Assembly: GCA_963777605.1 (NCBI GenBank)
Contig: CAVZRV010000024.1
Span: forward strand, 1-13,845
Length of the DNA stretch: 13,845 nt
Direction of reading: 5' to 3'
Source of the DNA: an uncultured Acidobacteriota bacterium
GTDB taxonomy: Bacteria; Acidobacteriota; UBA6911; RPQK01; JAPXNP01
Every line of letters starts with the position of its first letter. Positions within the stretch are counted from its first letter, which is position 1. Below the pieces are notes generated by a model, which ran no database searches, was not told the origin of the DNA, and was given only the letters and a program-made list of their open reading frames with translations. The translations under genes and the position numbers were made by a program. Positions 284-13,528 of this stretch are shown piece after piece.

Positions 284-2191
284 TTACCCTCGAACGGGAA
301 ATTCCGAGGAAAGGTCACTCAGGAGGGCCGGCAACACAGGAATCGAGACGCTGGACGGGAAATCGGCAGTACCGGTATACGCGGGGGTTCGGCAGCCTGT
401 GCATGCCTCGGCGCCGGCCTCGAAGATATTCTCCACGAAAGTCTGGCAGTTTTGATTGATAATCGGAAACCAAGCGCCCTGGACCTGGACCATGATGCGG
501 TGTCCCTTTCGGAAAGAGTAGTTCTGAGTGTGCAGGCTTTAGTTGTACTCCAGGACCTTGCCGGCTTCGATCGGCTCCGGTTCCTCGAAACGTCTCCCGG
601 TATCGGCCGCGGAAGACCTCGTTGGAGACCATCAACTGGTAACCGGCCAAGTCCCAGTCTTCCTCGCGGGTAATGTTCCGGGAAGACGTCGATAAGTTTA
701 ACGACCAATTATCGATGGTGCCGGTGGTGGAGGCATAGAGGTGGGCCACGTCCTCCCCGGCGATGGTGATTTATTGTTCTAGGGGAACACTTTCCCAACT
801 CAGGACGTCGGCCCGGTCATCGACAAAGCGCTGGTCCTTACGGGCACCAGCCATGCCTGCCAGGAGGGACCGGCCGTGGAAGTAGGTTGCCTGGATCGGC
901 CGGTGGCGGTAGGGGACCGGGTGTGTCGGGTCGGAGAGATAGCTGTCGAACGCTGCTTTTTGCCCCCCTCGCAGGGGCTTATTGGTTTGAGCCCATCCGA
1001 GCTGAAGTAAAGATTCCTCACGCCGCTCGACCCTGGACCGAGGCGGCCAGGAGTCCCATCGCTGCCAGCGGTTCGACCCCGCTTCGAATGTAAGAGCTTC
1101 CGGAAGATGCAGCCGGCCCTTGTCCTTTAGAAAATACGCGAACCAAGGGGCCGGGACCTCGTCGCTTAAGTAGCGGGAGGTGGAACTGTCGAAAGGGACT
1201 GGACCCAGGCTTGAACCGTTATCCCTTTCGCCATCCTCCGTGAGCTTCAGGGACCCACAACCAGGTAGTTCATGCCCGCCCAATCGGCACTTTTCCAGCG
1301 CTTCATAAATACGCAGGGGACCGTAGAAGTCTCTCTGGTCCCACCAGCCCGCGACGTTCAGGGTAGGCACCTTCACACCGGTGACCGGGGAATCAGAGTT
1401 GATGCTTCCAAAAGGCGTCGTAGTCGGGATGGGCCACGTAGTCGTTCCAGGTTGGGATCTTCCCATGAAAGAGCGGCGGGTTGACATTGGAGAGCGGCCC
1501 CAGGGCCATGTACTGGTCTTGACGTGTCGTAGCGGTCAAAGGGAAAGCGCTGCGTCTCCTGGCCCCCGTCAACCTGGTAGGCATACTCAAAGGAATAGCT
1601 GAGGCGGAATAGGGTTGTGGTGAAAATCGTCCTCGAGCCGACATGTCGGCAGGAGAAGCCTGGGGCTAGATTGCCTTCAACGCAGGATGGGGCTCCATCA
1701 ACGCGCACCACGGTGGTCCAACCGAGATAGGACACCCCAATGATGCCGACCCGGCCGTTGTTCGGGGTCACGTTCTCAAGCATCCACTCGATCGTGTCGT
1801 AGGTGTCGGTTCCTTCATCGAGAGCAGTGGAATCTCCTGGCTCGCGAGCCGGGCGCTGCATCACAAACTCGCCTTCCGACTCGAATTTGCCGCGAATGTC
1901 CTGGAAGGCAAAGATGTAGCCTTCATCAGCCAGGGTCTTCAGCGCAGTAACGAAGTTCCCTTCTGCCCCCGCAACACCGTAAGGGCTCCGAATCAGGATG
2001 ATGGGGAGCGGCTCCGGCTGGTCGCGGGGGATGAAGATCCGAGTGTTCAGGCGGATTCCGTCCCGCATGGGGATCATCTCCTTTCGAATCTCGAAGGGAG
2101 AGACGAACTCACCCTGAGGCTGGACCAGACCGGCTGCCGCAGCAAGGATGATAGTGAGGACGATTGAAACCGTGATCGGAGCATGCTTCAC
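284..2191 (-). pseudogene. CocE/NonD-family serine hydrolase (peptidase S15 / glutaryl-7-ACA acylase-like), split by several frameshifts (decay or sequencing indels)
   Basis: Consecutive minus-strand ORF pieces give a signal-peptide-like N-terminus, 'MIPMRDGIRL', 'RSPYG', 'QDIRGKFESEG', nucleophile motif GVSYLG, 'VPTLNVAGWWDQ', 'SDPTHPVPY', 'DQRFVDDRADVL' and 'VQVQGAWFP'. GTG at 2191 is preceded by GGAGG. The end is approximate. Confidence 0.88.
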
Positions 2192-2424
2192 GTGAACCTC
2201 CCGCAACACCAGTTATAGAGAGCCCAACTTGCCGGGTCAATCGATTCGTGGGGAACTCGAGACTGAAGCTCGAGTTGTTTACTCCGACTTCAGGCTTGGT
2301 GAACGCATCCTGAAAGGAGAGAAGAAGTCCCGACCCGAAGCAATAGCAACGGCATGCTCGCGCCAGTCTTAGCCTTCATCACTTTCGACATCGGAGACTG
2401 TCCTGCCCGGGTTCTCAAGAAATC

Positions 2425-2451
2425 TGCAACCGGAACTCCGCCGCTTCCGTC
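2425..2451 (+). promoter_or_regulatory. Putative ECF-sigma (SigW-like) autoregulatory promoter TGCAAC-N17-CGTC
   Basis: TGCAAC at 2425-2430 and CGTC at 2448-2451, upstream of an operon encoding an ECF sigma factor; resembles the TGAAAC-N16/17-CGT consensus. Confidence 0.55.
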
Positions 2452-2486
2452 CAAAGGGTGTCTCGTAAGAAATGGAGGTAGGGACG

Positions 2487-2903
2487 ATGGAAGTGCTGTT
2501 GTTTCTCTTGCTGGTCGTCTTCGGATTTGTCGGCTACGGAATGCTAAAACGCTTTCTGCTCGATCAGACGCTGGTCAAACAGCGGGAAATGATTCACAAG
2601 GAAAGGATTATGGCCATGGAAAAAGGACTGCCGATCGATAATCTCCAACTCCCGGAACACACGGTGATGTCGGATGGTTCGCTGCAGGAGAAAGTCCTCG
2701 TTTGGGTTCGGCTCATCGCTCTGGGGTTCGGACTGTTCCTGATTCCGGCTGGAATCGGCATTTGCATCGCCTTTCACTTCTCCGGGAACTTAGATCTTCA
2801 GCCCGTCTGGACGGTCGGATTGATCCCAATACTCTGTGGCTTCGGCCTTCTTCTGTTCTTCCTCTTGAGCAAGGGTTTCAAGGAAGACCTAAAATCAAAA
2901 TAG
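2487..2903 (+). CDS. Small membrane protein, DUF6249-like, ECF-operon associated
   Basis: GGAGG at 2474-2478 precedes ATG 2487. N-terminal TM helix, 'REMIHKERIMAMEKGLP' motif, then two C-terminal TM helices. Confidence 0.75.
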   Translation: MEVLLFLLLVVFGFVGYGMLKRFLLDQTLVKQREMIHKERIMAMEKGLPIDNLQLPEHTVMSDGSLQEKVLVWVRLIALGFGLFLIPAGIGICIAFHFSGNLDLQPVWTVGLIPILCGFGLLLFFLLSKGFKEDLKSK

Positions 2904-3541
2904 TGTTGTCTGCGACTTACTCTCTCGACTTCTTTTGTGTTCCGCTGAAGGACACCGTTCCCCCAACTGCGGTGAGCGACAACTCCGATCTCTGGAAAGA
3001 CGAGGAACTGGTCGGGCACTATTTGAAGACGGGGAAGGATCACTTCTTTGCGATTCTCGTTCGTCGCTACAAGGAGAAAGTGTTTCGACTGGTTCTCTCG
3101 GTTCGGGGGCTCTCGTTCACGGAAGAAGCCGAAGAAGTCGTGCAGGAGGTGTTTCTGACGGTCCACCGGGACCTGAAGCAGTTTCGCTTTGACAGCCGTT
3201 TCAGCACGTGGCTTTACCGGATTGCATTTAATCGTTCGATCGACTGGCGCCGGAAACCCCGCCTTAAATTCCACCACTCGGGCGAAGGCACGCTTCGCTC
3301 GCAGGCATCCCCCCGGCGAAGTCCCCTGCGGAAGGCGAGCGACCACGAACGCGACGAGCGAATTCTGAAGTGCGTGGAGAGACTTCCCGAACCCGCTCGG
3401 TCGGTTGTCTTCCTGCACTACTGGCTTGACCAGTCGGTGGCGGAGATTGCGCAGTATCTCGATCTCAAATCCTCGACGGTGAAGTCTCACCTGTTCCGGG
3501 CAAGAAAGTTGCTGGGACGTTCACTGAGAGGCAAGGTCTGA
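2903..3541 (+). CDS. RNA polymerase sigma-70 factor, ECF subfamily
   Basis: Region 2 'EAEEVVQEVFL...FRFDSRFSTWLYRIAFN' and region 4 'SVAEIAQYLDLKSSTVKSHLFRARKLL'. Start uncertain: GTG 2903 overlapping the upstream stop, or GTG 2972. Confidence 0.93.
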   Translation: MLSATYSLDFFCVPLKDTVPPTAVSDNSDLWKDEELVGHYLKTGKDHFFAILVRRYKEKVFRLVLSVRGLSFTEEAEEVVQEVFLTVHRDLKQFRFDSRFSTWLYRIAFNRSIDWRRKPRLKFHHSGEGTLRSQASPRRSPLRKASDHERDERILKCVERLPEPARSVVFLHYWLDQSVAEIAQYLDLKSSTVKSHLFRARKLLGRSLRGKV

Positions 3542-4054
3542 AATGGTAAGTACTGCCCCAGCCTGGGCCAGATTGAGCGGTTCTTCGAAGGAGCATTCAA
3601 ATCGGGCGAAGAGCGCAGGCAATGGGAGTCCCATCTCGAGATCTGCGATCAGTGCCGGGATACTCTTTTCGGTCACCAGGAACTGGCCCGAAGCTGGCAG
3701 CGTTTCCCGCTTACCTACCTCTCTCCCCAGTTTGACCAGGAACTTGAGGCCGCCTTGGCACGTGACACGACTCCTGCGGCCTCGAGCCACTGGAAGCGCC
3801 TTCTCTTATGGGCATATTGGGTCCTGACACTTGGTGCCAGTCTAGTGATCCTCGATTCGATCCAGGGCACAATCCAGATTCCAACCGCATTCTGGATTAC
3901 TTTGCTGGTATCCGCGACCCTTCCGCTGATCGCCTTGAGCTTTGCGTTGAAGCAGCTTCGCCTGGGATTCTTTGACCTGCTCCATTTCGCGACGATCGAT
4001 CCCGAGTTTCAGGCGGGTTCCAGTGATTCCGCGCTGCGGGGATCATTCGAATAG
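3542..4054 (+). CDS. Membrane-anchored zinc-binding anti-sigma factor (zf-HC2/ZAS)
   Basis: The frame is open from 3542 to TAG 4054: NGKYCPSLGQIERFF...WESHLEICDQCRD (HxxxCxxC at 3632-3655), followed by two TM helices. There is no in-frame start before the zinc motif (ATG 3543 is out of frame), probably an indel. Confidence 0.8.
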   Translation, partial: NGKYCPSLGQIERFFEGAFKSGEERRQWESHLEICDQCRDTLFGHQELARSWQRFPLTYLSPQFDQELEAALARDTTPAASSHWKRLLLWAYWVLTLGASLVILDSIQGTIQIPTAFWITLLVSATLPLIALSFALKQLRLGFFDLLHFATIDPEFQAGSSDSALRGSFE

Positions 4055-4061
4055 TGAAGCT

Positions 4062-4357
4062 TGCCAACTCCGGCCCGGGATCGCGGTTTTCACGCATTCA
4101 GTACGCAAGTCAGCGCGCGCGTATCCAGGCCTTCATCCATCGCCCACCCCTCGGATCTTGACTCCATCCCGCGGTTCCGGCCTCCGGCAGCACTTCCGCT
4201 GACTCACCATCGCCCGGAGCCGCGCTCGCTGACACTCGCGTTCTGAAATCGGGGTATCCAGGATCCAGCCGAGAACCAGGGCTTCTGAGTTCCACCGATC
4301 GCCCGAATCTCCATCCAGACGCGTCCAAATCATCCAGGATTTCCAGTTCATCCAAAT
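4062..4357 (+). other. Cassette U0: unique non-coding 5' part (hairpin CGCGGTTCCGG...CCGGAGCCGCG) plus a 3' tail shared with type A cassettes
   Basis: Lies between the degenerate first repeat and repeat 4358. The last ~100 bp align with type A tails (CCAGGATCCAGCCGA...TCCACCGATCGCC...TCATCCAAAT). Confidence 0.7.
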
Positions 4358-4416
4358 TGAAGTTTCAGGTCAGCCCCGCCGCCGCGCCCGCCGCGGATCA
4401 TTCAGAGAGTGAAACT

Positions 4417-5134
4417 GGACCTGGCGCTGGAGGCGCCTTGGTTTCAGCCCAGGGCTTGCCCTGGGTCTGGGGTCCCGGCAAGGCGATCGCGGCCTGTAAG
4501 GTCGCGCCGATTCTTCACGTCCGAAGAGGTGTGCCGCCCTTTCAGGGCTGGATTCTTGATGGGTGGGCCGTGAACCCAGGCAAATGCCTGGGCTGGAAAC
4601 AGGCCCCCTTCAGGGGCCCGCCCGGCGCCGATCCTGTGATCCTCACTCATCCACGTCTGGCACCGGACCAGGAACCAGGTTCCAGCCGATAATCGCGTCC
4701 CTGGCTCTCCACCGATCGCCTCAATCCCGTCCAGACGCGTCCAAATCTTCCAGGATTTCCAACTCATCCAAATGAAGTTTTAAGTCAGCCGGGCCCCCGG
4801 CGCCGCGCCCCCGCGGATCATTCAGAGAGTGAAACTGGGCTGGTGCTGGCGCCTTGGTTTCAGGCCAGGGTTCCCTGGGTCTTGGTCCTGCACTTCGGCG
4901 GCCAATCGCGCCGGAATCGGAGCGGAGACGTGCCGCCCTTTCAGGGCGGATTCAGCCCGGTGGCCGTGAACCCAGCAAATGCCGGCTGGAAATCAGGCGC
5001 CCTGCGATCCTGTGATCCTCACTCATCCGCGTCTGGCAACCAGCCAGGTTCCGCCATATTCCCTGGCCTCCACCGATCGCCTCAATCCCCGTCCAGACGC
5101 GTCCAAATCATCCAGGATTTCCAACTCATCCGAA
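4417..5134 (+). repeat. Two type A non-coding REP/REPIN-like cassettes (4417-4772; deleted/degenerate copy 4837-5134)
   Basis: Same sequence family as 8495-10095, with hairpins such as GCCCTTTCAGGGC; the second copy has many short deletions. Confidence 0.88.
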
Positions 5135-5226
5135 TGAAGTTTCAAGTCAGCCCCGCCCCCGGCCGCCGCCGGACCATTCAGAGAGTGAAACTGAGCCAAG
5201 CCTGCGAGAGTCGGCTATGCTTGCGT

Positions 5227-5389
5227 TCGGCACAGGCCCGGGCAGTTCAGACCCGTTGTGCACTGGAGCATGTTGCCCCAAAGTCAGCCTGGTTTCGAGT
5301 GAGGCGATCATTCATTGGCGAGGCCGCTCAGGGCACTCCCCGAAGTCAGAATCCAAATTCACGCCACCTCGAGCCCGAGCCTGTGCCGA
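5227..5389 (+). ncRNA. Putative IS110 bridge RNA (copy in IS unit 1)
   Basis: Lies in the non-coding end upstream of the recombinase. Closed by a stem 5227-5243/5373-5389 (16 of 17 complementary). Contains AAGTCAGCC (5281-5289) and GATCATTCA (5306-5314), identical to the two halves of the array repeat. Confidence 0.75.
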
Positions 5390-5412
5390 TTCACCAGGAG
5401 GACAAAGCTAGC

Positions 5413-6789
5413 ATGAGATCGAAGCGGAAGTCGAGAAGTCGGAAGCGTCGACAGGGTTTGCGAGTGATCCGGGAGCGGGTGGCGGGAATCGATCTGGGTT
5501 CGTGCGAAAGCGCCGGGTGTTGGCCCGATCGGGAGACGGGCCAGTTGAAGGTCCTTTGTTTTGGGACGACGACACCGGAGTTGGAGTTGGTATTGGACGG
5601 ACTCGAGGCCGACAGGATCGAATCGGTGGCGATGGAAGCGACCGGGGTGTACTGGATCCCGCTGTACGAGCTGTTGGTGTCGCGGGGATTCGAAGTGGTG
5701 CTGGTCAATGCGCGGCAGTTGAAGTACGTCCCGGGCCGCAAGACCGACATCAAGGATTGCCAGTGGATCCAGTTGCTGCACAGTTGTGGTTTGCTGCGGG
5801 GATCGTTCCGACCCGCCGAAGCGATCTGTCAGTTGCGGGCGCTCGAGCGGGAGCGGGCCGGACTGGTGGGGCTGGCGGGGCAGGCGGTGCAGATGATGCA
5901 GAAGGCGCTCGACCAGATGAACGTGCAGGTGCACCGGGCGGTGACGGATCTGACGGGACAGACCGGAATGGCGATCGTGCGGGCGATGGTCGGCGGCGAA
6001 CGGGATCCGTTTCGACTGGCGGCTTTGCGGGACCGGCGCTGTCGGAAGTCGGAAGCCAAAATAGCGGAGCATCTGACGGGGACGTGGCGGGAGGAACACC
6101 TGTTCAACCTGGGCAAAGCGTTGGAGTGGTATGACTTCGTGCAGGGTCAACTGGCCGACTATGACGAGGAGATCGGACGCGTGCTCCACCGACTCGAGGC
6201 GAGCGACCGAGCCGATCAGGAGCCGGGGCCCCATCCCCAGCCCACCAAGGAGCGGGCGCTGAACAAACGGGGAGAGCAGCAGCGACGCACGATGCTGTGG
6301 CGGGTGACCGGCGTGGACCTGACCCGGATCGACGGCATCGCTGCGCCGGCGGCCCAACGCATCCTCAGCGAGATCGGCCTGGATCTGTCGGCGTTTCCGG
6401 TCGAAAAGCACTTCGTGTCCTGGCTGCGACTGAGTCCAAAGACCGCCTACTCCGCCGGCAAACCCCTGCGCAAACGTCGCCAGGGCACCGGCTCCACCCG
6501 CGTGGCCAATGTCCTGAGGATGGCCGCGCTGTCCCTGAAACATTCGCAGTCGGCGATGGGAGCCTACTTCCGCCACATCGCCCGACGCAAAGGAGGGGGC
6601 ACCGCCGTCTTCGCCACCGCCCGCAAACTGGCTCAGTACATCTACCGCATGCTCCGCTTCGGTCAGGACTATGTCGACGAAGGCGCCGAAGCCTACGAAG
6701 CACGCTACCGGCTCAAACGGTTCCAGTCCCTCACCAGCACGGCCCAAACCATGGGCTACAAACTGGTTCCGGTGGAGGTCCAAGGATGA
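5413..6789 (+). CDS. IS110-family transposase/recombinase (DEDD RuvC-like domain plus Transposase_20 domain), 458 aa
   Basis: AGGAGG at 5396-5401 and ATG 5413. Catalytic motifs GIDLG, MEATG and RKTDIKD; C-terminal 'IDGIA...SEIG.DLSAF..EKHFVSWLRL.P...YSAGK' with the putative catalytic Ser; 'ATARKLA'. Its stop TGA is the first 3 nt of the array repeat. Confidence 0.96.
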   Translation: MRSKRKSRSRKRRQGLRVIRERVAGIDLGSCESAGCWPDRETGQLKVLCFGTTTPELELVLDGLEADRIESVAMEATGVYWIPLYELLVSRGFEVVLVNARQLKYVPGRKTDIKDCQWIQLLHSCGLLRGSFRPAEAICQLRALERERAGLVGLAGQAVQMMQKALDQMNVQVHRAVTDLTGQTGMAIVRAMVGGERDPFRLAALRDRRCRKSEAKIAEHLTGTWREEHLFNLGKALEWYDFVQGQLADYDEEIGRVLHRLEASDRADQEPGPHPQPTKERALNKRGEQQRRTMLWRVTGVDLTRIDGIAAPAAQRILSEIGLDLSAFPVEKHFVSWLRLSPKTAYSAGKPLRKRRQGTGSTRVANVLRMAALSLKHSQSAMGAYFRHIARRKGGGTAVFATARKLAQYIYRMLRFGQDYVDEGAEAYEARYRLKRFQSLTSTAQTMGYKLVPVEVQG

Positions 6790-6877
6790 AGTTTCAAGTC
6801 AGCCCCGCCCCCGGCGCCGCCGGACCATTCAGAGAGTGAAACTGAGCCAAGCCTGCGAGAGTCGGCTATGCTTGCGT

Positions 6878-7040
6878 TCGGCACAGGCCCGGGCAGTTCA
6901 GACCCGTTGTGCACTGGAGCATGTTGCCCCAAAGTCAGCCTGGTTTCGAGTGAGGCGATCATTCATTGGCGAGGCCGCTCAGGGCACTCCCCGAAGTCAG
7001 AATCCAAATTCACGCCACCTCGAGCCCGAGCCTGTGCCGA
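6878..7040 (+). ncRNA. Putative IS110 bridge RNA (copy in IS unit 2)
   Basis: Same sequence as 5227-5389, offset by 1651 bp. Confidence 0.75.
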
Positions 7041-7063
7041 TTCACCAGGAGGACAAAGCTAGC

Positions 7064-8440
7064 ATGAGATCGAAGCGGAAGTCGAGAAGTCGGAAGCGTC
7101 AACAGGGTTTGCGAGTGATCCGGGAGCGGGTGGCGGGAATCGATCTGGGTTCGTGCGAAAGCGCCGGGTGTTGGCCCGATCGGGAGACGGGCCAGTTGAA
7201 GGTCCTTTGTTTTGGGACGACGACACCGGAGTTGGAGTTGGTATTGGACGGACTCGAGGCCGACAGGATCGAATCGGTGGCGATGGAAGCGACCGGGGTG
7301 TACTGGATCCCGCTGTACGAGCTGTTGGTGTCGCGGGGATTCGAAGTGGTGCTGGTCAATGCGCGGCAGTTGAAGTACGTCCCGGGCCGCAAGACCGACA
7401 TCAAGGATTGCCAGTGGATCCAGTTGCTGCACAGTTGTGGTTTGCTGCGGGGATCGTTCCGACCCGCCGAAGCGATCTGTCAGTTGCGGGCGCTCGAGCG
7501 GGAGCGGGCCGGACTGGTGGGGCTGGCGGGGCAGGCGGTGCAGATGATGCAGAAGGCGCTCGACCAGATGAACGTGCAGGTGCACCGGGCGGTGACGGAT
7601 CTGACGGGACAGACCGGAATGGCGATCGTGCGGGCGATGGTCGGCGGCGAACGGGATCCGTTTCGACTGGCGGCTTTGCGGGACCGGCGCTGTCGGAAGT
7701 CGGAAGCCAAAATAGCGGAGCATCTGACGGGGACGTGGCGGGAGGAACACCTGTTCAACCTGGGCAAAGCGTTGGAGTGGTATGACTTCGTGCAGGGTCA
7801 ACTGGCCGACTATGACGAGGAGATCGGACGCGTGCTCCACCGACTCGAGGCGAGCGACCGAGCCGATCAGGAGCCGGGGCCCCATCCCCAGCCCACCAAG
7901 GAGCGGGCGCTGAACAAACGGGGAGAGCAGCAGCGACGCACGATGCTGTGGCGGGTGACCGGCGTGGACCTGACCCGGATCGACGGCATCGCTGCGCCGG
8001 CGGCCCAACTCATCCTCAGCGAGATCGGCCTGGATCTGTCGGCGTTTCCGGTCGAAAAGCACTTCGTGTCCTGGCTGCGACTGAGTCCAAAGACCGCCTA
8101 CTCCGCCGGCAAACCCCTGCGCAAACGTCGCCAGGGCACCGGCTCCACCCGCGTGGCCAATGTCCTGAGGATGGCCGCGCTGTCCCTGAAACATTCGCAG
8201 TCGGCGATGGGAGCCTACTTCCGCCACATCGCCCGACGCAAAGGAGGGGGCACCGCCGTCTTCGCCACCGCCCGCAAACTGGCTCAGTACATCTACCGCA
8301 TGCTCCGCTTCGGTCAGGACTATGTCGACGAAGGCGCCGAAGCCTACGAAGCACGCTACCGGCTCAAACGGTTCCAGTCCCTCACCAGCACGGCCCAAAC
8401 CATGGGCTACAAACTGGTTCCGGTGGAGGTCCAAGGATGA
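7064..8440 (+). CDS. IS110-family transposase/recombinase, 458 aa (second copy)
   Basis: Same motifs as 5413-6789, with two amino-acid differences (R>Q near the N-terminus; QRI>QLI). Confidence 0.96.
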   Translation: MRSKRKSRSRKRQQGLRVIRERVAGIDLGSCESAGCWPDRETGQLKVLCFGTTTPELELVLDGLEADRIESVAMEATGVYWIPLYELLVSRGFEVVLVNARQLKYVPGRKTDIKDCQWIQLLHSCGLLRGSFRPAEAICQLRALERERAGLVGLAGQAVQMMQKALDQMNVQVHRAVTDLTGQTGMAIVRAMVGGERDPFRLAALRDRRCRKSEAKIAEHLTGTWREEHLFNLGKALEWYDFVQGQLADYDEEIGRVLHRLEASDRADQEPGPHPQPTKERALNKRGEQQRRTMLWRVTGVDLTRIDGIAAPAAQLILSEIGLDLSAFPVEKHFVSWLRLSPKTAYSAGKPLRKRRQGTGSTRVANVLRMAALSLKHSQSAMGAYFRHIARRKGGGTAVFATARKLAQYIYRMLRFGQDYVDEGAEAYEARYRLKRFQSLTSTAQTMGYKLVPVEVQG

Positions 8441-8494
8441 AGTTTCAAGTCAGCCCCGCCCCCGGCGGCGCCGGATCATTCAGAGAGTGAAACT

Positions 8495-10095
8495 GGACCT
8501 GGCGCTGGAGGCGCCTTGGTTTCAGCCAAGGGCTTGCCCTGGGTTTGTGGTCCTGCACTTCGATTGCGGCCTGTAAGGTCGCGCCGATTCTTCACGTCCG
8601 GAGAGCTGTGCCGCCCTTTCAGGGCTGGATTCTTGATGGGTGGGCCGTGAACCCAGGCAAATGCCTGGGCTGGAAACAGGCCCCCTTCAGGGGCCAGTCC
8701 GGCGCCGATCCCGTGATCATCACTCATCCACGTCTGGCACCGGACCGAGGAACCAGGATCCAGCCGATAATCACGTCCCTGGCTCTCCACCGATCGCCTC
8801 AATCCCCGTCCAGACGCATCCAATTCGTCCAGGTTCTTCAACTCATCCCAAATGAAGTTTCAGGTTAGCCCCGCCCCCGGCGCGCGCCGGATCATTCAGA
8901 GAGTGAAACTGGACCTGGCGCTGGAGGCGCCTTGGTTTCAGCCCAGGGCTTGCCCTGGGTTTGTGGTCCGGCAAATCGATTGCGGCCTGTAAGGTCGCGC
9001 CGATTCTTCACGTCCGGAGAGCTGTGCCGCCCTTTCAGGGCTGGATTCTTGATGGGTGGGCCGTGAACCCAGGCAAATGCCTGGGCTGGAAACAGGCCCC
9101 CTTCAGGGGCCAGTCCGGCGCCGATCCCGTGATCATCACTCATCCACGTCTGGCACCGGACCAGGAACCAGGATCCAGCCGATAATCACGTCCCTGGCTC
9201 TCCACCGATCGCCTCAATCCCCGTCCAGACGCATCCAATTCGTCCAGGTTCTTCAACTCATCCCAAATGAAGTTTCAAGTCAGCCCCGCCCCCGGCGGCG
9301 CCGGATCATTCAGAGAGTGAAACTGGACCTGGCGCTGGAGGCGCCTTGGTTTTCAGCCCAGGCTTGCCCTGGGTTTGTGGTCCTGCACTTCGATTGCGGC
9401 CTGTAAGGTCGCGCCGATTCTTCACGTCCGGAGAGCTGTGCCGCCCTTTCAGGGCTGGATTCTTGATGGGTGGGCCGTGAACCCAGGCAAATGCCTGGGC
9501 TGGGAACAGGCCCCCTTCAGGGGCCAGTCCGGCGCCGATCCCGTGATCATCACTCATCCACGTCTGGCACCGGACCAGGAACCAGGATCCAGCCGATAAT
9601 CACGTCCCTGGCTCTCCACCGATCGCCTCAATCCCCGTCCAGACGCATCCAATTCGTCCAGGTTCTTCAACTCATCCCAAATGAAGTTTCAAGTCAGCCC
9701 CGCCCCCGGCGGCGCCGGATCATTCAGAGAGTGAAACTGGACCTGGCGCTGGAGGCGCCTTGGTTTCAGCCCAGGGCTTGCCCTGGGTTTGTGGTCCTGC
9801 ACTTCGATTGCGGCCTGTAAGGTCGCGCCGATTCTTCACGTCCGGAGAGCTGTGCCGCCCTTTCAGGGCTGGATTCTTGATGGGTGGGCCGTGAACCCAG
9901 GCAAATGCCTGGGCTGGAAACAGGCCCCCTTCAGGGGCCAGTCCGGCGCCGATCCCGTGATCATCACTCATCCACGTCTGGCACCGGACCAGGAACCAGG
10001 ATCCAGCCGATAATCACGTCCCTGGCTCTCCACCGATCGCCTCAATCCCCGTCCAGACGCATCCAATTCGTCCAGGTTCTTCAACTCATCCCAAA
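8495..10095 (+). repeat. Four tandem type A non-coding cassettes (8495-8852, 8911-9267, 9325-9681, 9739-10095), period 414-415 bp
   Basis: Near-identical units with an inverted pair of REP-like palindrome clusters followed by a TCCA-rich tail; no conserved credible ORF. Confidence 0.92.
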
Positions 10096-10152
10096 TGAAG
10101 TTTCAAGTCAGCCCCGCCCCCGGCCGCCGCCGGACCATTCAAAGTGTGAAAC

Positions 10153-10181
10153 TTGCCGCGGCCGCATCAATCGATTAAAAT
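10153..10181 (+). promoter_or_regulatory. Sigma70-like promoter TTGCCG-N17-TAAAAT of the type B cassette (repeated at 10569-10597 and 10984-11012)
   Basis: -35 at 10153-10158, 17-bp spacer, -10 at 10176-10181, about 10 nt upstream of the RNA's terminal stem. Confidence 0.7.
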
Positions 10182-10190
10182 CCACTGCGC

Positions 10191-10353
10191 GGCATGAGCA
10201 GTGGCAGTTAAGACCCTCGAGGCACTGGCGCATTTTTGCCCCAAAGTCAGCTTGGTCCCGGGCTGTGCGATCATTCATTAGTGAGGCTCTTGGAGCACTC
10301 CTCAAGGTCAGAATAGACCATTCAGACAGCCACCCCGGGCCACCGTTCATGCC
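10191..10353 (+). ncRNA. Putative stand-alone bridge RNA, B1
   Basis: Terminal stem GGCATGAGCAGTGGC/GCCACCGTTCATGCC shows compensatory changes relative to the IS copy. Guide-like AAGTCAGC at 10244-10251 and GATCATTCA at 10269-10277. Confidence 0.72.
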
Positions 10354-10606
10354 CCTTTTGAAAAGCCTGCTCATGCGGATTCGCGGAGATTGGGCGTGGT
10401 GTCCCCATCACGCTCAAACGGCTCGATAGACGACTTTTTTCTCGCCACTCGCTGTTCTCAGCGGCAGCAGCATCTCTCACAGAATACAAGAGTTAGCGGA
10501 ATTGCCGAGATTGAAGTTTCAGGTCAGCCCCGCCCCCGGCCGCCGCCGGACCATTCAAAGTGTGAAACTTGCCGCGGCCGCATCAATCGATTAAAATCCA
10601 CTGCGC

Positions 10607-10769
10607 GGCATGAGCAGTGGCAGTTAAGACCCTCGAGGCACTGGCGCATTTTTGCCCCAAAGTCAGCTTGGTCCCGGGCTGTGCGATCATTCATTAGTGA
10701 GGCTCTTGGAGCACTCCTCAAGGTCAGAATAGACCATTCAGACAGCCACCCCGGGCCACCGTTCATGCC
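10607..10769 (+). ncRNA. Putative stand-alone bridge RNA, B2
   Basis: Copy of B1. Confidence 0.72.
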
Positions 10770-11021
10770 CCTTTTGAAAAGCTGTTCATGCGGATTCGCG
10801 GAGATTGGGCGTGGTGTCCCCATCACGCTCAAACGGCTCGATAGACGACTTTTTTCTCGCCACTCGCTGTTCTCAGCGGCAGCAGCATCTCTCACAGAAT
10901 ACAAGAGTTAGCGGAATTGCCGAGATTGAAGTTTCAGGTCAGCCCCGCCCCCGGCCGCCGCCGGACCATTCAAAGTGTGAAACTTGCCGCGGCCGCATCA
11001 ATCGATTAAAATCCACTGCGC

Positions 11022-11183
11022 GGCATGAGCAGTGGCAGTTAAGACCCTCGAGGCACTGGCGCATTTTTGCCCCAAAGTCAGCTTGGTCCCGGGCTGTGCG
11101 ATCATTCATTAGTGAGGCTCTTGGAGCACTCCTCAAGGTCAGAATAGACCATTCAGACAGCCACCCGGGCCACCGTTCATGCC
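11022..11183 (+). ncRNA. Putative stand-alone bridge RNA, B3
   Basis: Copy of B1 with a 1-nt homopolymer difference. Confidence 0.72.
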
Positions 11184-11397
11184 CCTTTTGAAAAGCCTGC
11201 TCATGCGGATTCGCGGAGATTGGCGTGGTGTCCCCATCACGCTCAAACGGCTCGATAGACGACTTTTTTCTCGCCACTCGCTGTTCTCAGCGGCAGCAGC
11301 ATCTCTCACAGAATACAAGAGTTAGCGGAATTGCCGAGATTGAAGTTTCAGGTCAGCCCCGCCCCCGGCGGCGCCGGACCATTCAGAGAGTGAAACT

Positions 11398-11670
11398 GGT
11401 GAAGCATCGCCAGATGAGCGCGCCAACGGCGCAGGGTCATTTCCAGCCCGGCGGCAACGCCCCGGGAATCGGAGCCAAGACGGCAATGCAGCACTGAAAG
11501 TGCGATTCAGTCCCGGCGGCGGACGATTTCAGAAGAACCCGGAAATCAAGAACCCTGGATTGAGAAGGTTCACTTCCGCCGGGCAAGCTGCCCGGCCGCC
11601 ATAAGGCAGGGATGCCTGGATTACTTTCCCTCCAGAAACGAGAAACCAGGAACCAGGAACTCATCCCGAT
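11398..11670 (+). other. Cassette C: unique non-coding unit with a REP-like palindrome cluster and heptamer repeats
   Basis: GCGCCAACGGCGC...CCAGCCCGGCGGCAACGCCCGGG...GCACTGAAAGTGC, hairpin CGGGCAAGCTGCCCG, tail AGAAACG-AGAAACC-AGGAACC-AGGAACT; flanked by standard array repeats. Confidence 0.75.
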
Positions 11671-11727
11671 TGAAGTTTCAAGTCAGCCCCGCCCCCGGCG
11701 GCGCCGGACCATTCAAAGAGTGAAACT

Positions 11728-12504
11728 GGACCTGGCGCTGGAGGCGCCTTGGTTTCAGCCCAGGGCTTGCCTTGGGTCTGTGGTCCCGGCAAGGCGATCG
11801 CGGCCTGTAAGGTCGCGCCGATTCTTCCGTCCGAAGAGCTGTTCAGCCCTTTCAGGGCTGGATTCTTGATGGGGGGGCCGTAAACCCAGGCAAATGCCTG
11901 AGCTGGAAACAGGCCCCCTTCGAGGGGCCCGCCCGGCGCCGATACCGTGATCATCACTCATCCACGTCTGGCACCGGACCCGGAACCAGGATCCAGCCGA
12001 TAATCACGTCCCTGGCTCTCCACCGATCGCCTCAATCCCCGTCCAGACGCATCCAATTCGTCCAGGTTCTTCAACTCATCCCAAATGAAGTTTCAAGTCA
12101 GCCCCGCCCCCGCGCCCTCCGTCGGATCATTCAGAGAGTGAAACTCGACCTGGCGCTGGAAGGCGCCTTGGTTTCAGACCAGGGCTTGCCCTGGGTTCGT
12201 GGTCCCGGCAAGGCGATCGCGGCCTGTAAGGTCGCGCCGATTCTTCACGTCCGGAGAGCTGTGCCGCCCTTTCAGGGCTGGATTCTTGATGGGTGGGCCG
12301 TGAACCCAGGCAAATGCCTGGGCTGGAAACAGGCCCCCTTCAGGGGCCAGTCCGGCGCCGATCCTGTGATCATCACTCATCCACGTCTGGCACCGGACCC
12401 GGAACCAGGATCCAGCCGATAATCACGTCCCTGGCTCTCCACCGATCGCCCGAATTCCCATCCAAACGCGTCCAAATCATCCAGTTCTTCCAGTTCATCC
12501 AAAT
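11728..12504 (+). repeat. Two more type A cassettes (11728-12085, 12146-12504)
   Basis: Same family. They share the variant 'GGTCCCGGCAAGGCGATCGC' with the 4417 copy rather than with the central four. Confidence 0.9.
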
Positions 12505-12548
12505 TGAAGTTTCAGGTCAGCGGCGCCCCTCCCGCTACGCGCGGAAGA

Positions 12549-12577
12549 TTCAAAGGGTGTGCCATGTGGGGTAGAAT
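12549..12577 (+). promoter_or_regulatory. Putative sigma70 promoter TTCAAA-N17-TAGAAT for the downstream epimerase gene, overlapping the terminal repeat
   Basis: TTCAAA at 12549-12554 and TAGAAT at 12572-12577, 35 nt before ATG 12613. Confidence 0.5.
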
Positions 12578-12612: not shown

Positions 12613-13528
12613 ATGAATAACGAATCTTCGCGTCGAGATTTTCTCAAGACTTCTGTGCCATGGTTGCGGGTGCGGGAATCATGAGTTCCCTGGCCGGTGC
12701 TCCTCCGGCGTGCGGCCGTACCAAAGAAGGCCAAGCTCACCAAGGGCGTGGTGTGGGGCACGCTGCCCGAAGAGCTCAGCTACGACGAGCGCCTGAAACT
12801 CGCCGCGGATGCGGGCTTCGAAGTGGTCGAAGGGTAACCGTAGAGGACCCGCGCGAGGCAGAAAAGATCAAGACGGCGGCGGAGAAAGCCGGAATCCACC
12901 TCAGTTCCGTGATGAACCAGGCTCATTGGCCTTACCCCCTCTCGAGCAGCGATCCCGAAGTCGTCAAGAAGAGCCTCGATGGCATGCGCACCTCGCTTCG
13001 CAACGCCTCCTTGTGGGGCGCCGACGCCGTATTACTTGTGCCTGCCGTGGTTGATGCAGGAACCCCCTACCGTACCGCGTACGAACGCTCGCAAAAACAC
13101 ATTCGGGAACTGATCCCCCTGGCCGAGGAATTGAAGGTAGCCATCGCGGTCGAGGAGGTCTGGAATAAGTTCCTGTTGAGCCCGATGGAATTTGCCAACT
13201 ACGTCGACGAGTTCAAGAGCCCCTGGGTCCGGGCCTATTTTGACGTCGGAAACGTGGTCATCTTCGGCTACCCGCAGGACTGGATCCGCACATTGGGCAG
13301 CCGGATCAAGAAGGTCCATCTGAAAGACTTCAAGGTCATGACCACGGGGTTCAGCCCCTTCAGCACCGAGTTCGTCAACCTTGGCGACGGCGACATCGAC
13401 TGGCCCGAGGTTCGCAAAGCCCTGGACGAGATCGGGTACGAAGGCACCGTGATCGCCGAACTCGACGCGGGCGACCTGCCTACCTGACCGACGTCCGCAA
13501 ACGGATCGACCGCCTGCTGATGATTTAG
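12613..13528 (+). CDS. Tat-exported sugar phosphate isomerase/epimerase (xylose isomerase-like TIM barrel / AP endonuclease 2 family), apparently frameshifted
   Basis: N-terminal MNNESSRRDFLK twin-arginine motif. Core motifs 'IAVEEVWNKFLLSP', 'YFDVGN', 'VHLKDF' and 'LGDGDIDW..V..AL..IGY.G'. Frame changes in the 5' part and near 13480; the shifted frame ends YLTDVRKRIDRLLMI-TAG 13528. Confidence 0.85.

Follow-up and report, generated by a model that had tools for sequence, protein, structure and literature searches.

Head-to-tail stacking of IS110-family units in an uncultured Acidobacteriota bacterium, probably through a bridge RNA directed to the right end of the family itself

The stretch of DNA analysed here (the window) is the whole of contig CAVZRV010000024.1 (C24; 13,845 bp) from the assembly GCA_963777605.1 of an uncultured Acidobacteriota bacterium, a genome of 6.73 Mb in 53 contigs with a completeness of 96.7% and a contamination of 5.7%. 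It carries an array of 15 units, all on the + strand within 4009-12559, in which two complete copies of an IS110-family insertion sequence (IS) stand among 13 units that lack a recombinase gene, i.e. three B units with a bridge-RNA gene and ten non-coding units of the kinds A, C and U0. From left to right the order is U0, A, A', IS, IS, A, A, A, A, B, B, B, C, A, A, with a spacer repeat of 57-59 nucleotides (nt; about 57) between neighbours. The features of the array are listed below, with putative functions for the RNA segments.

4009-4373, + strand: U0, decayed first unit with an A-like right end (final GTCAG at 4373); homology to contig C25 ends at 4008
about 4027-4060, + strand: degenerate left-end relic of U0, GGATCATTCGAATAGTGAAGCT, read from the sequence
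4374-4788, + strand: A1, non-coding and non-autonomous, 415 bp, 91-94% identical to other A copies
4789-5150, + strand: A2', shortened and diverged A, 362 bp, from cut sites and identity
5151-6802, + strand: IS copy 1, 1652 bp, with left end, bridge-RNA gene, recombinase gene and a very short right end
5229-5387, + strand: predicted bridge-RNA core of IS copy 1, from RNAalifold on aligned left ends
5280-5289, + strand: putative target guide AAAGUCAGCC in the domain 1 loop of IS copy 1
5306-5314, + strand: same-sense segment GAUCAUUCA on the 5' side of domain 2 of IS copy 1
5342-5349, + strand: putative donor guide GAAGUCAG in the domain 2 loop of IS copy 1
5413-6789, + strand: recombinase gene, 458 amino acids (aa), from Pfam matches
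6803-8453, + strand: IS copy 2, 1651 bp, in direct tandem with copy 1; open reading frame (ORF) at 7064-8440
8454-8868, 8869-9283, 9284-9697 and 9698-10111, + strand: A3-A6, 99-100% mutual identity
10112-10527, 10528-10942 and 10943-11356, + strand: B1-B3, each with a complete bridge-RNA gene (about 10191-10353 in B1), recombinase gene absent
11357-11686, + strand: C1, non-coding, 330 bp, member of a 31-copy dispersed family
11687-12101 and 12102-12520, + strand: A7 and A8, from cut sites and identity
12521-12559, + strand: degenerate left-end-like sequence past the last right end (profile positions 1-54, 28 bits)
6786-6844, + strand: example of an IS-to-IS junction, ..GAAGTTTCAAGTCAG followed by CCCCGCCCCCGGCGCCGCCGGACCATTCAGAGAGTGAAACT
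4357, 4772, 5134, 8437, 8852, 9267, 9681, 10095, 10511, 10926, 11340, 11670 and 12085, + strand: starts of the other 13 strong junctions

Three views of the sequence agree on this layout. A repeat finder returned 15 copies of the junction core between 4345 and 12536, all on the + strand, with start-to-start spacings of 415, 362, 1652, 1651, 415, 415, 414, 414, 416, 415, 414, 330, 415 and 419. Tandem Repeats Finder (TRF) resolved three blocks (period 414 × 4.1 with 98% matches at 8437-10153; period 415 × 3.1 with 98% at 10096-11397; period 419 × 2.1 with 90% at 11658-12529), and a profile based on 14 junctions picks up the full set of 15 in the window, with a degenerate last one (12504-12559). 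The original prediction, an array of 15 cassettes in this order and in one orientation around a shared site of about 57 bp, with degenerate copies at both ends (the relic at about 4027-4060 and the last junction), is thereby confirmed. Its limits of 4005-12560 match the breaks in homology to a diverged paralogous locus on contig C25, which aligns with the window up to 4008 and resumes at 12572. This paralogue lacks the array; another 1.2 kb sits there, hence it provides no clean empty site, and since A units and the IS were absent from all 15 same-family genomes searched, no orthologous empty site was obtainable either. The sequence at 12521-12559, whose flank is present at a sister array on contig C8 as well, is what remains of either the original target or an old unit.

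The unit kinds were defined by pairwise identity after trimming of the shared ends, which comprise about 41-45 nt on the left and about 15 nt on the right across the unit families. Measured in this way, the A copies are 88-100% alike (the adjacent A3-A6 99-100%), B1-B3 are mutually 99-100% alike, U0 is about 70% like A, and the best non-self match of A2' in the whole genome reaches 79%. Comparisons of A with B and of A or B with C give 21-74%, which is the noise level of this measure, and the IS is likewise at noise. The earlier claim of unrelated kinds that have only the junction in common thus holds.

The recombinase encoded by both IS copies is intact (ORFs 5413-6789 and 7064-8440, each of 458 aa, with two residues different). 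It combines an N-terminal DEDD (RuvC-like) domain (Pfam DEDD_Tnp_IS110, PF01548, E 9.4e-20, residues 24-169) with a C-terminal Tnp domain (Transposase_20, PF02371, E 8.7e-11) and is a distant relative of the solved IS621 transposase (8wt6, weak match, E 4.3e-5). The D/E/D/D-like motifs GIDLG, EATG and KTD..D, which we take to be the catalytic residues of the DEDD domain, are kept in the homologue from a genome of the same order (G029). The same applies to an SAGK motif; its serine is offset by one position in the IS621 alignment, so that the identity of the catalytic serine is uncertain. The whole genome holds only four IS110 recombinase genes, two in the window and two in the sister array on C8, and all four ORFs are intact.

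As all four IS copies lie inside arrays, the limits of the element were taken from relatives with many copies, namely those of G029 (55% aa identity, 14 copies), of a Bryobacterales metagenome-assembled genome (MAG; 58%, 10 copies read) and of a Planctomycetota MAG (51%, 10 copies read). In each of them, the copies are alike from just behind ..CAG/..TAG up to ..GTTTCA-N5-AG, and the left end consists of a GC-rich hairpin, a GGATCATTC-like motif and GAAAC. The ten Bryobacterales copies lie in unique, often coding, DNA after ..GCCAG (AAGCCAG in seven of ten), and the hairpin and the GGATCATTC motif are therefore part of the element and not of a host repeat. In the window, the corresponding right end reads ..GAAGTTTCArGTCAG and the left end CCCCGCCCCCGG..CCGGAyCATTCArAGwGTGAAACT, that is, a GC hairpin followed by a GGAyCATTCAGAGAGTGAAACT-type motif. 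By analogy with these relatives, the 57-nt repeat would simply be formed where the right end of unit n meets the left end of unit n+1, with no separate att site, and its sequence would be the junction that the excised circle of any unit carries. The stop codon of the IS falls within the repeat. Variants in the left half of the repeat track the unit on the left, and those in the hairpin and the right half track the unit on the right (by eye), which is the pattern that such an anatomy predicts. Hence, the junction is indeed built from IS110 end sequences and the recombinase is itself a unit, as had been proposed, and what had been taken for an independent site resolves into a donor junction of right end and left end.

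Folded as single-stranded DNA, the junction forms a 7-bp outer stem (AGTTTCA/TGAAACT) and the GC hairpin, with z of about -1.8 to -2.5. A perfect stem of at least 5 bp is present in 104 of 135 left ends vs 495 of 1350 mononucleotide shuffles, a difference that is suggestive only, the segment being very GC-rich. At the Bryobacterales loci L051, L052, L054 and L058, the last ~75 nt of the right end are tandemly repeated just 3' of the recombinase gene, each repeat ending in ..GTTTCACACCAG; this expansion of the right end only resembles the left-donor-only repeat units of Hu et al., as far as the portion of that work drawn on here describes them.

A structured RNA is predicted between the left end and the recombinase gene. 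Six left ends (own IS, own B, G029, G025, Bryobacterales and Planctomycetota) were aligned and folded with RNAalifold, which yielded one common fold of 48 pairs, 22 of them with compensatory changes. The paired cells amount to 92% vs 27-48% when the partners are slid by 1-3 columns, and none of 500 shuffles reaches the observed covariation values. Single-sequence minimum-free-energy folds of the IS and B left ends are indistinguishable from shuffles (z -1.7 and -0.3), and only the comparative fold is informative; an Rfam scan with an E cutoff of 1 gave zero matches across the whole window. The common fold is composed of an outer 15-bp stem around two sub-domains. Read in the same sense, the unpaired 3' side of domain 1 carries the 7 nt that precede the insertions of each lineage, together with the opening 1-2 nt of the left end. 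The 3' side in domain 2 carries, again in the same sense, the final 7-8 nt of the respective lineage's right end.

Own IS: left flank AAGTCAG, loop 1 AAAGUCAGCC; right end AAGTCAG, loop 2 GAAGUCAG
Own B: follows AAGTCAG, loop 1 AAGUCAG; right end AGGTCAG, loop 2 AGGUCAG
G029: left flank A(T/G)CTTAG, loop 1 AUCUUAGCC; right end AGCTTAG, loop 2 AGCUUAG
Bryobacterales: left flank AAGCCAG, loop 1 AAGCCAGUC; right end ACACCAG, loop 2 ACACCAG
Planctomycetota: left flank GAGCCAG, loop 1 GAGCCAGUC; right end AGGTCAG, loop 2 AGGUCAG

Matches of the guides to flanks and ends are found in the G025/G410 lineage too. In a survey of the phylum, 401 genomes were searched, 19 of which contained a relative at E up to 1e-60, and 11 further lineages were examined by eye. 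The right-end rule holds in all 11 and the left-flank rule in nine, with G298 giving no fit and G249 having an unclear left end. (The same-family and phylum-wide tallies include an unpublished genome, G018, on which no claim depends.) In the part of PMC11208158 used here, the left guides of bridge RNAs are described as pairing with the bottom strand and hence as reading like the top strand. Such relations are what would be expected of a left target guide and a left donor guide, and the two loops are accordingly predicted to fill these roles. For antisense right guides, inspection by eye gave only 3-nt GGC/GCC stretches, and no right target or donor guide of the IS621 type is claimed.

The guides offer a simple answer to the question of why the units stack. 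The target guide AAGUCAG (plus CC) is the same as the donor guide AAGUCAG and as the 7 nt in which the IS, A and C units end, and every internal AAGTCAG junction, continued by CC, matches the target guide in 9 of 9 positions. Since target guide, donor guide and right end coincide, each insertion would recreate its own target. This logic extends well beyond the window. A profile search found 152 left ends at 90 loci of the genome, mostly as single units or groups of two to three and mostly without a recombinase, so that the special integron-like locus of the original prediction is not a platform of its own. An exact A[AG]GTCAG precedes 68 of the 152 left ends (2 of 2000 random 85-mers), the same motif with at most one mismatch precedes 115 (control 47/2000), and a full right-end-like 14-mer precedes 63 (control 0/2000). 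From the opposite side, 181 right-end-like sequences were counted vs 23 in a reversed-genome control; a left end comes next in 67 of the 181 and other DNA in the remaining 114. Nine of the 12 bridge-RNA-bearing units in the genome lie behind AAGTCAG, as their target guides specify. The remaining three lie behind AGGTCAG and are all B units preceded by B, an arrangement that looks more like local duplication.

Relatives differ in how closely their two guides agree. In G029, the guides are one nucleotide apart, all 14 IS copies stand behind a right-end-like sequence, and a further left end comes after 5 of the 13 readable copies. In the Bryobacterales genome, the guides are two nucleotides apart and unique DNA surrounds most copies; IS-unit-IS tandems and the ~75-nt right-end-only repeats are also present. 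Target and donor guide agree in the own genome, in G029 (with the one nucleotide just mentioned) and in G255, and they do not in the Bryobacterales and Planctomycetota genomes. In the distant G255 (L141, L142), the target guide AUGCAAGU equals the own right end ..CCATGCAAG and both copies lie behind a right-end-like sequence, which on these matches would be a second, independent case of self-end targeting. The Planctomycetota copies at L102-L113 are inserted at the centre of a perfect palindrome, GTACGGAGC-CAG-GCTCCGTAC, some flanks having longer similar hairpins, and thus in a target that resembles repetitive extragenic palindromes (REPs).

The units without a recombinase gene belong to several dispersed families. 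A is present in 47 full-length copies on 13 contigs (77-100% identical), C in 31 full-length copies on 14 contigs and B in 7 copies on 4 contigs, and clusters of downstream sequence with 33, 27, 19, 16, 12 and 12 members indicate at least four more families. No ORF is conserved among the A copies; one of at least 80 aa is found in only 10 of 47, on which ground a protein-coding A unit was rejected. A and C also have no homologue of the bridge RNA. MITEs (miniature inverted-repeat transposable elements) are short, non-coding and multi-copy, share termini with an autonomous element and outnumber it. The A and C units are likewise short, non-coding, dispersed and multi-copy, with termini common to the autonomous IS, and they represent MITE-like families that share only their ends rather than the gene cassettes that had been suspected. 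Unlike MITEs, they have no usual terminal inverted repeats or target duplications, are stacked head to tail and would be mobilised by RNA-guided conservative recombination. Each A unit contains the hairpin GGCGCTGGAGGCGCC and then TTGGTTTCAGCCCAG (4423-4446 as an example in the window), and the tail of TTGGTTTCAGCCCAG, about 75 nt into the unit, resembles the right-end motif GTTTCA-N5-AG; A may be a composite of older nested units. B represents a different kind of reduction, in which the whole bridge-RNA gene is kept and the recombinase gene is lost; over its first 223 nt, B shares 75% identity with the left end of the IS. Its right end is ..TTTCAGGTCAG, and both its donor guide and its right end (AGGTCAG) differ from those of the IS. 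Just upstream of the bridge-RNA core, the B units have a promoter-like TTGCCG-17-TAAAAT (10153-10181, 10569-10597 and 10984-11012), and these guide-only units may be expressed on their own.

The sister array at C8:329338-336263 is the same locus in another haplotype, and the two are colinear. It reads U0, A, X, IS, IS, (B fragment + A), B', B, C, A, A; a single A-type unit takes the place of the four on C24, and the unit before the IS pair is not A2' but a different one. The U0 units of the two arrays are 99% identical, IS copy 1 is 99.6% identical to the IS pair on C8, and the first A of C8 is 99% identical to the last A of the window and 94% to its positional partner. Identity of the flanks is a mosaic of 75-100%, with 100% at 1751-3000 of the window, 75-89% at 251-1750 and 88-96% in the right flank. 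In 250-nt bins this mosaic gives no calibration, and dating of the units from the flank divergence was dropped. Some short contigs duplicate long ones (C4/C11 at 100%, C44/C31, C21/C15), and together with the mosaic flanks this indicates that the bin holds more than one strain. A second locus points in the same direction as C24 and C8, with one unit on C15 and three different units including a B on C21, one flank being 99.45% identical. Unit content hence varies at a given site, and unequal crossing-over alone is insufficient to account for it. Among public sequencing runs, 20 were listed, the best of which contained 0.24 of the sampled words. Four of them, from four studies (soil, rhizosphere, wetland), were examined, and their Logan contigs contain the IS at ~98% identity and the junction with many different neighbours.

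Taken together, the array is probably a head-to-tail stack of IS110-family units whose bridge RNA takes the right end of the family itself as its target. In this scenario, the right end of an integrated unit would offer a fresh target at which the next unit inserts, the IS would act in trans on the units that lack a recombinase, copying them out and pasting them in (the different units at one locus in the C15 and C21 haplotypes are indirect evidence of this), and runs of identical neighbours (A four times, B three times, IS twice) could stem from repeated insertion or from unequal recombination. The recombinase would still act on these ends today, and the excision and reordering that the original prediction ascribed to it would proceed along the same lines. 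The ~150-180 ends would depend on what may be one recombinase locus.

Several points weigh against this explanation. Of the 152 left ends, 37 are preceded by a 7-mer with at least two mismatches to the guide, and about half of the targets are AGGTCAG, which is imperfect for the present IS guide; other or past guides must therefore have acted, or mismatches are tolerated. The boundaries of the IS in its own genome are drawn by analogy with relatives. The strand of the RNA is assigned by analogy and from the promoter-like site in B, and counts of G-U vs A-C pairs in the alignment do not settle it. A sigma-70 scan detected no promoter of the sigma-70 type at the junction repeat. Copy numbers of near-identical neighbours rest on one assembly, and the C8 array contains at about 331790-331970 a run of ~16 C and then ~160 A (~175 nt) inside a B-type unit, just past the target-guide loop, which is most likely an assembly or consensus artefact, arrays of this kind being hard to assemble. 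The Logan contigs of the four runs break at the repeat. Finally, unequal homologous recombination explains the identical A3-A6 and B1-B3 equally well.

This last process could also be the main one, with a few seed insertions followed by growth through unequal homologous recombination or replication slippage between the 57-nt repeats and between identical units, in which case the greater part of the array would have arisen independently of the recombinase. Besides the 99-100% identity within A3-A6 and B1-B3, the two-residue difference between the IS pair, the clean TRF periods of 414-415 bp and the same order with a single A-type unit on C8 are in line with such growth, and so is the fact that a B behind B follows AGGTCAG, which mismatches the target guide of B itself. 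However, the interleaving of unrelated kinds goes beyond what tandem duplication alone can provide, as already argued in the original prediction, and the replacement of units at the same position (A2' vs the C8 unit; C15 vs C21) needs insertion or exchange. As the same junction logic is moreover found at 90 loci, growth by recombination is rather unlikely to be the principal process, although it can be partly true alongside self-directed insertion.

That the array, its order or its copy numbers arose by misassembly of dispersed repeats in a metagenome is improbable. The window is a whole contig of 13.8 kb, its near-left flank is 100% identical to C8, the A copies are told apart by small homopolymer indels, and the homopolymer run in the C8 array shows that errors are a real concern. 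Nevertheless, two contigs with diverged outer flanks (75-94%) bear colinear arrays with an IS pair each, arrays of two to three units lie inside long contigs at many loci, and the head-to-tail arrangement recurs in independent assemblies (G029; Bryobacterales L050 and L056).

Integrons are oriented arrays of circularisable, unrelated units, each with one imperfect-palindrome recombination site, and a dedicated platform of this type, on which an RNA-guided recombinase collects, reorders and expresses diverse cassettes to the benefit of the host, was the core of the original prediction. The orientation of the array and the regenerated site between unrelated units recall such a system, as do the recombinase inside the array (with the only recombinase genes of the genome in the window and the sister array), the imperfect palindrome of the single-stranded junction and the differing unit content of haplotypes. 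In contrast to integrons, no tyrosine integrase of the IntI type was found among the 10 window ORFs scanned (not every small ORF), there is neither a separate attI-like site nor a Pc-type cassette promoter, and the 'site' consists merely of a unit's own right and left ends. The units are non-coding, and the same ends recur at 90 loci, mostly with one to three units and without a recombinase. Gene-free units and a like behaviour of arrays at other loci thus appear to be true here, which makes a host-serving platform very improbable. A host palindrome of the REP type, arranged in bacterial interspersed mosaic elements (BIMEs), spread by a REP-associated tyrosine (RAYT, Y1) transposase and merely targeted by the IS, can practically be dismissed in spite of the ~150 copies of a hairpin-bearing 57-nt repeat, nine Pfam Y1_Tnp matches in the genome and IS110 members described as inserting into REPs in the literature excerpts used here, as the right half of the repeat is the IS left end in lineages that sit in unique coding DNA (Bryobacterales), its left half is the IS right end, none of the nine Y1 genes adjoins the repeat (the nearest is 2.3 kb off), and the array copies are all direct instead of alternating as in BIMEs.

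A further feature of the predicted RNA concerns the donor side. The segment GAUCAUUCA (5306-5314) repeats, in the same sense, the left-end motif GGATCATTCA, which lies 22-30 nt inside the element and beyond the GC hairpin. The loop of the IS matches A-type left ends (e.g. 8472-8480) in 9 of 9 positions and its own left end GGACCATTCA in 8 of 9. Across 13 lineages, the summed within-lineage local score of loop vs left-end segment is 79, compared with a permuted mean of 59.3 (sd 3.8), and none of 20000 permutations reaches 79; the antisense control in the same 13 lineages gave no signal. In the excerpt of PMC11208158 used here, the right donor guide of IS621 is antisense and adjacent to the core, whereas the present segment is sense and distant from the core. 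Judged from its sequence, it would pair with the bottom strand, as would the left donor guide, on either side of the hairpin. Since this second loop segment copies and covaries with the left-end motif beyond the hairpin, it is conceivable, as a tentative extension, that the bridge RNAs of this clade are tuned to their own ends, that the arrays are self-extending landing pads for the autonomous IS, the guide-only B and the guide-less A and C, and that the donor is seen as a folded single strand or cruciform, somewhat like attC.

The neighbourhood of the array is otherwise made up of ordinary genes. To the left, an ECF-type sigma-70 factor gene (2702-3541) is followed by small ORFs, two of which (3543-3827 and 3755-4054) overlap like a peptidase S15-like pair further upstream. 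This peptidase S15-like gene (771-2209, - strand) is spread over two overlapping ORFs (771-1487 and 1373-2209), only the upstream one of which has a Pfam match, and its split probably results from a frameshift or sequencing error. To the right of the array, a xylose-isomerase-like TIM-barrel gene occupies 12660-13487.

According to the part of PMC11208158 drawn on here, IS110 elements are excised in circular form and integrate with a bridge RNA as their guide. As far as the text used here goes, the present system resembles that of IS621 in the DEDD and Tnp domains, the structured RNA upstream of the gene, the same-sense left-side loops and an ..AG dinucleotide-like core. It differs in that both loops lie within one outer 15-bp stem, the left guides are on the 3' side of the loops, and target and donor guide are the same. 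Expanded IS110 loci have been reported by Hu et al. (bioRxiv preprint, 2026; 10.64898/2026.08.14.744561), who, in the portions available, describe tandem non-coding units by recombinases (n=468), tandem whole modules (n=437) and partial circles, with unit boundaries that mostly match one donor arm (left-donor), and state that insertion does not regenerate the target. The window, with tandem non-coding units and tandem IS modules by the recombinase, belongs to this class of expanded loci, and it would share stepwise growth in place with those described in these portions, for which partial circles are reported. Unlike them, it has complete donor arms at every junction, several unrelated dispersed families and no cargo genes, and insertion would regenerate the target because the left side of the target equals the left side of the donor. 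Xie et al. (10.64898/2026.08.31.748434) find, in the section drawn on, that donor-arm recognition alone suffices for copy-out, and Na et al. describe, again in the part used here, a target stem-loop as a second layer of specificity. A recombinase-less module of ISPpu9 (ssr9) forms recombinase-dependent circles, as stated in the part of Pares-Guillen et al. (NAR 2025, PMC12288879) consulted for this point. This module likewise has the same end boxes as its IS, stands alone or beside it and crosses over at AG. In the same excerpt, however, it comprises one module type in few copies, in contrast to the at least six unit families, ~150-180 ends, arrays of up to 15 units and the B units with their own bridge RNA in the present genome. 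The opinion that no such system had been described has thus to be given up in part, as tandem IS110 units and modular circles are in print already (Hu et al. 2026; PMC12288879). New relative to what is printed are the complete donor arms everywhere, the unrelated non-autonomous families, the guide-only family and the identical guides; the supplements of Hu et al. and of Durrant/Hiraizumi may hold similar cases.

For work on IS110 elements in general, two consequences may be drawn. True tandem IS-IS junctions, as in this array, are a trap for the calling of circles from head-to-tail-spanning reads, the method described in the portion of Hu et al. used here. The extra same-sense segment, if real, would be a donor-recognition element outside the known 14-nt site and would matter for the design of bridge recombinases and for the prediction of natural substrates. 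For the family itself, a testable rule emerges, by which a target guide identical to the donor guide lets each insertion recreate its own target and thereby gives rise to arrays; this contrasts with the statement, in the same portion of Hu et al., that IS110 insertion regenerates no target. In the organism, the autonomous IS, the units that carry only a bridge RNA and the units that consist of ends only would together form a natural three-tier parasitic system around a single recombinase locus.

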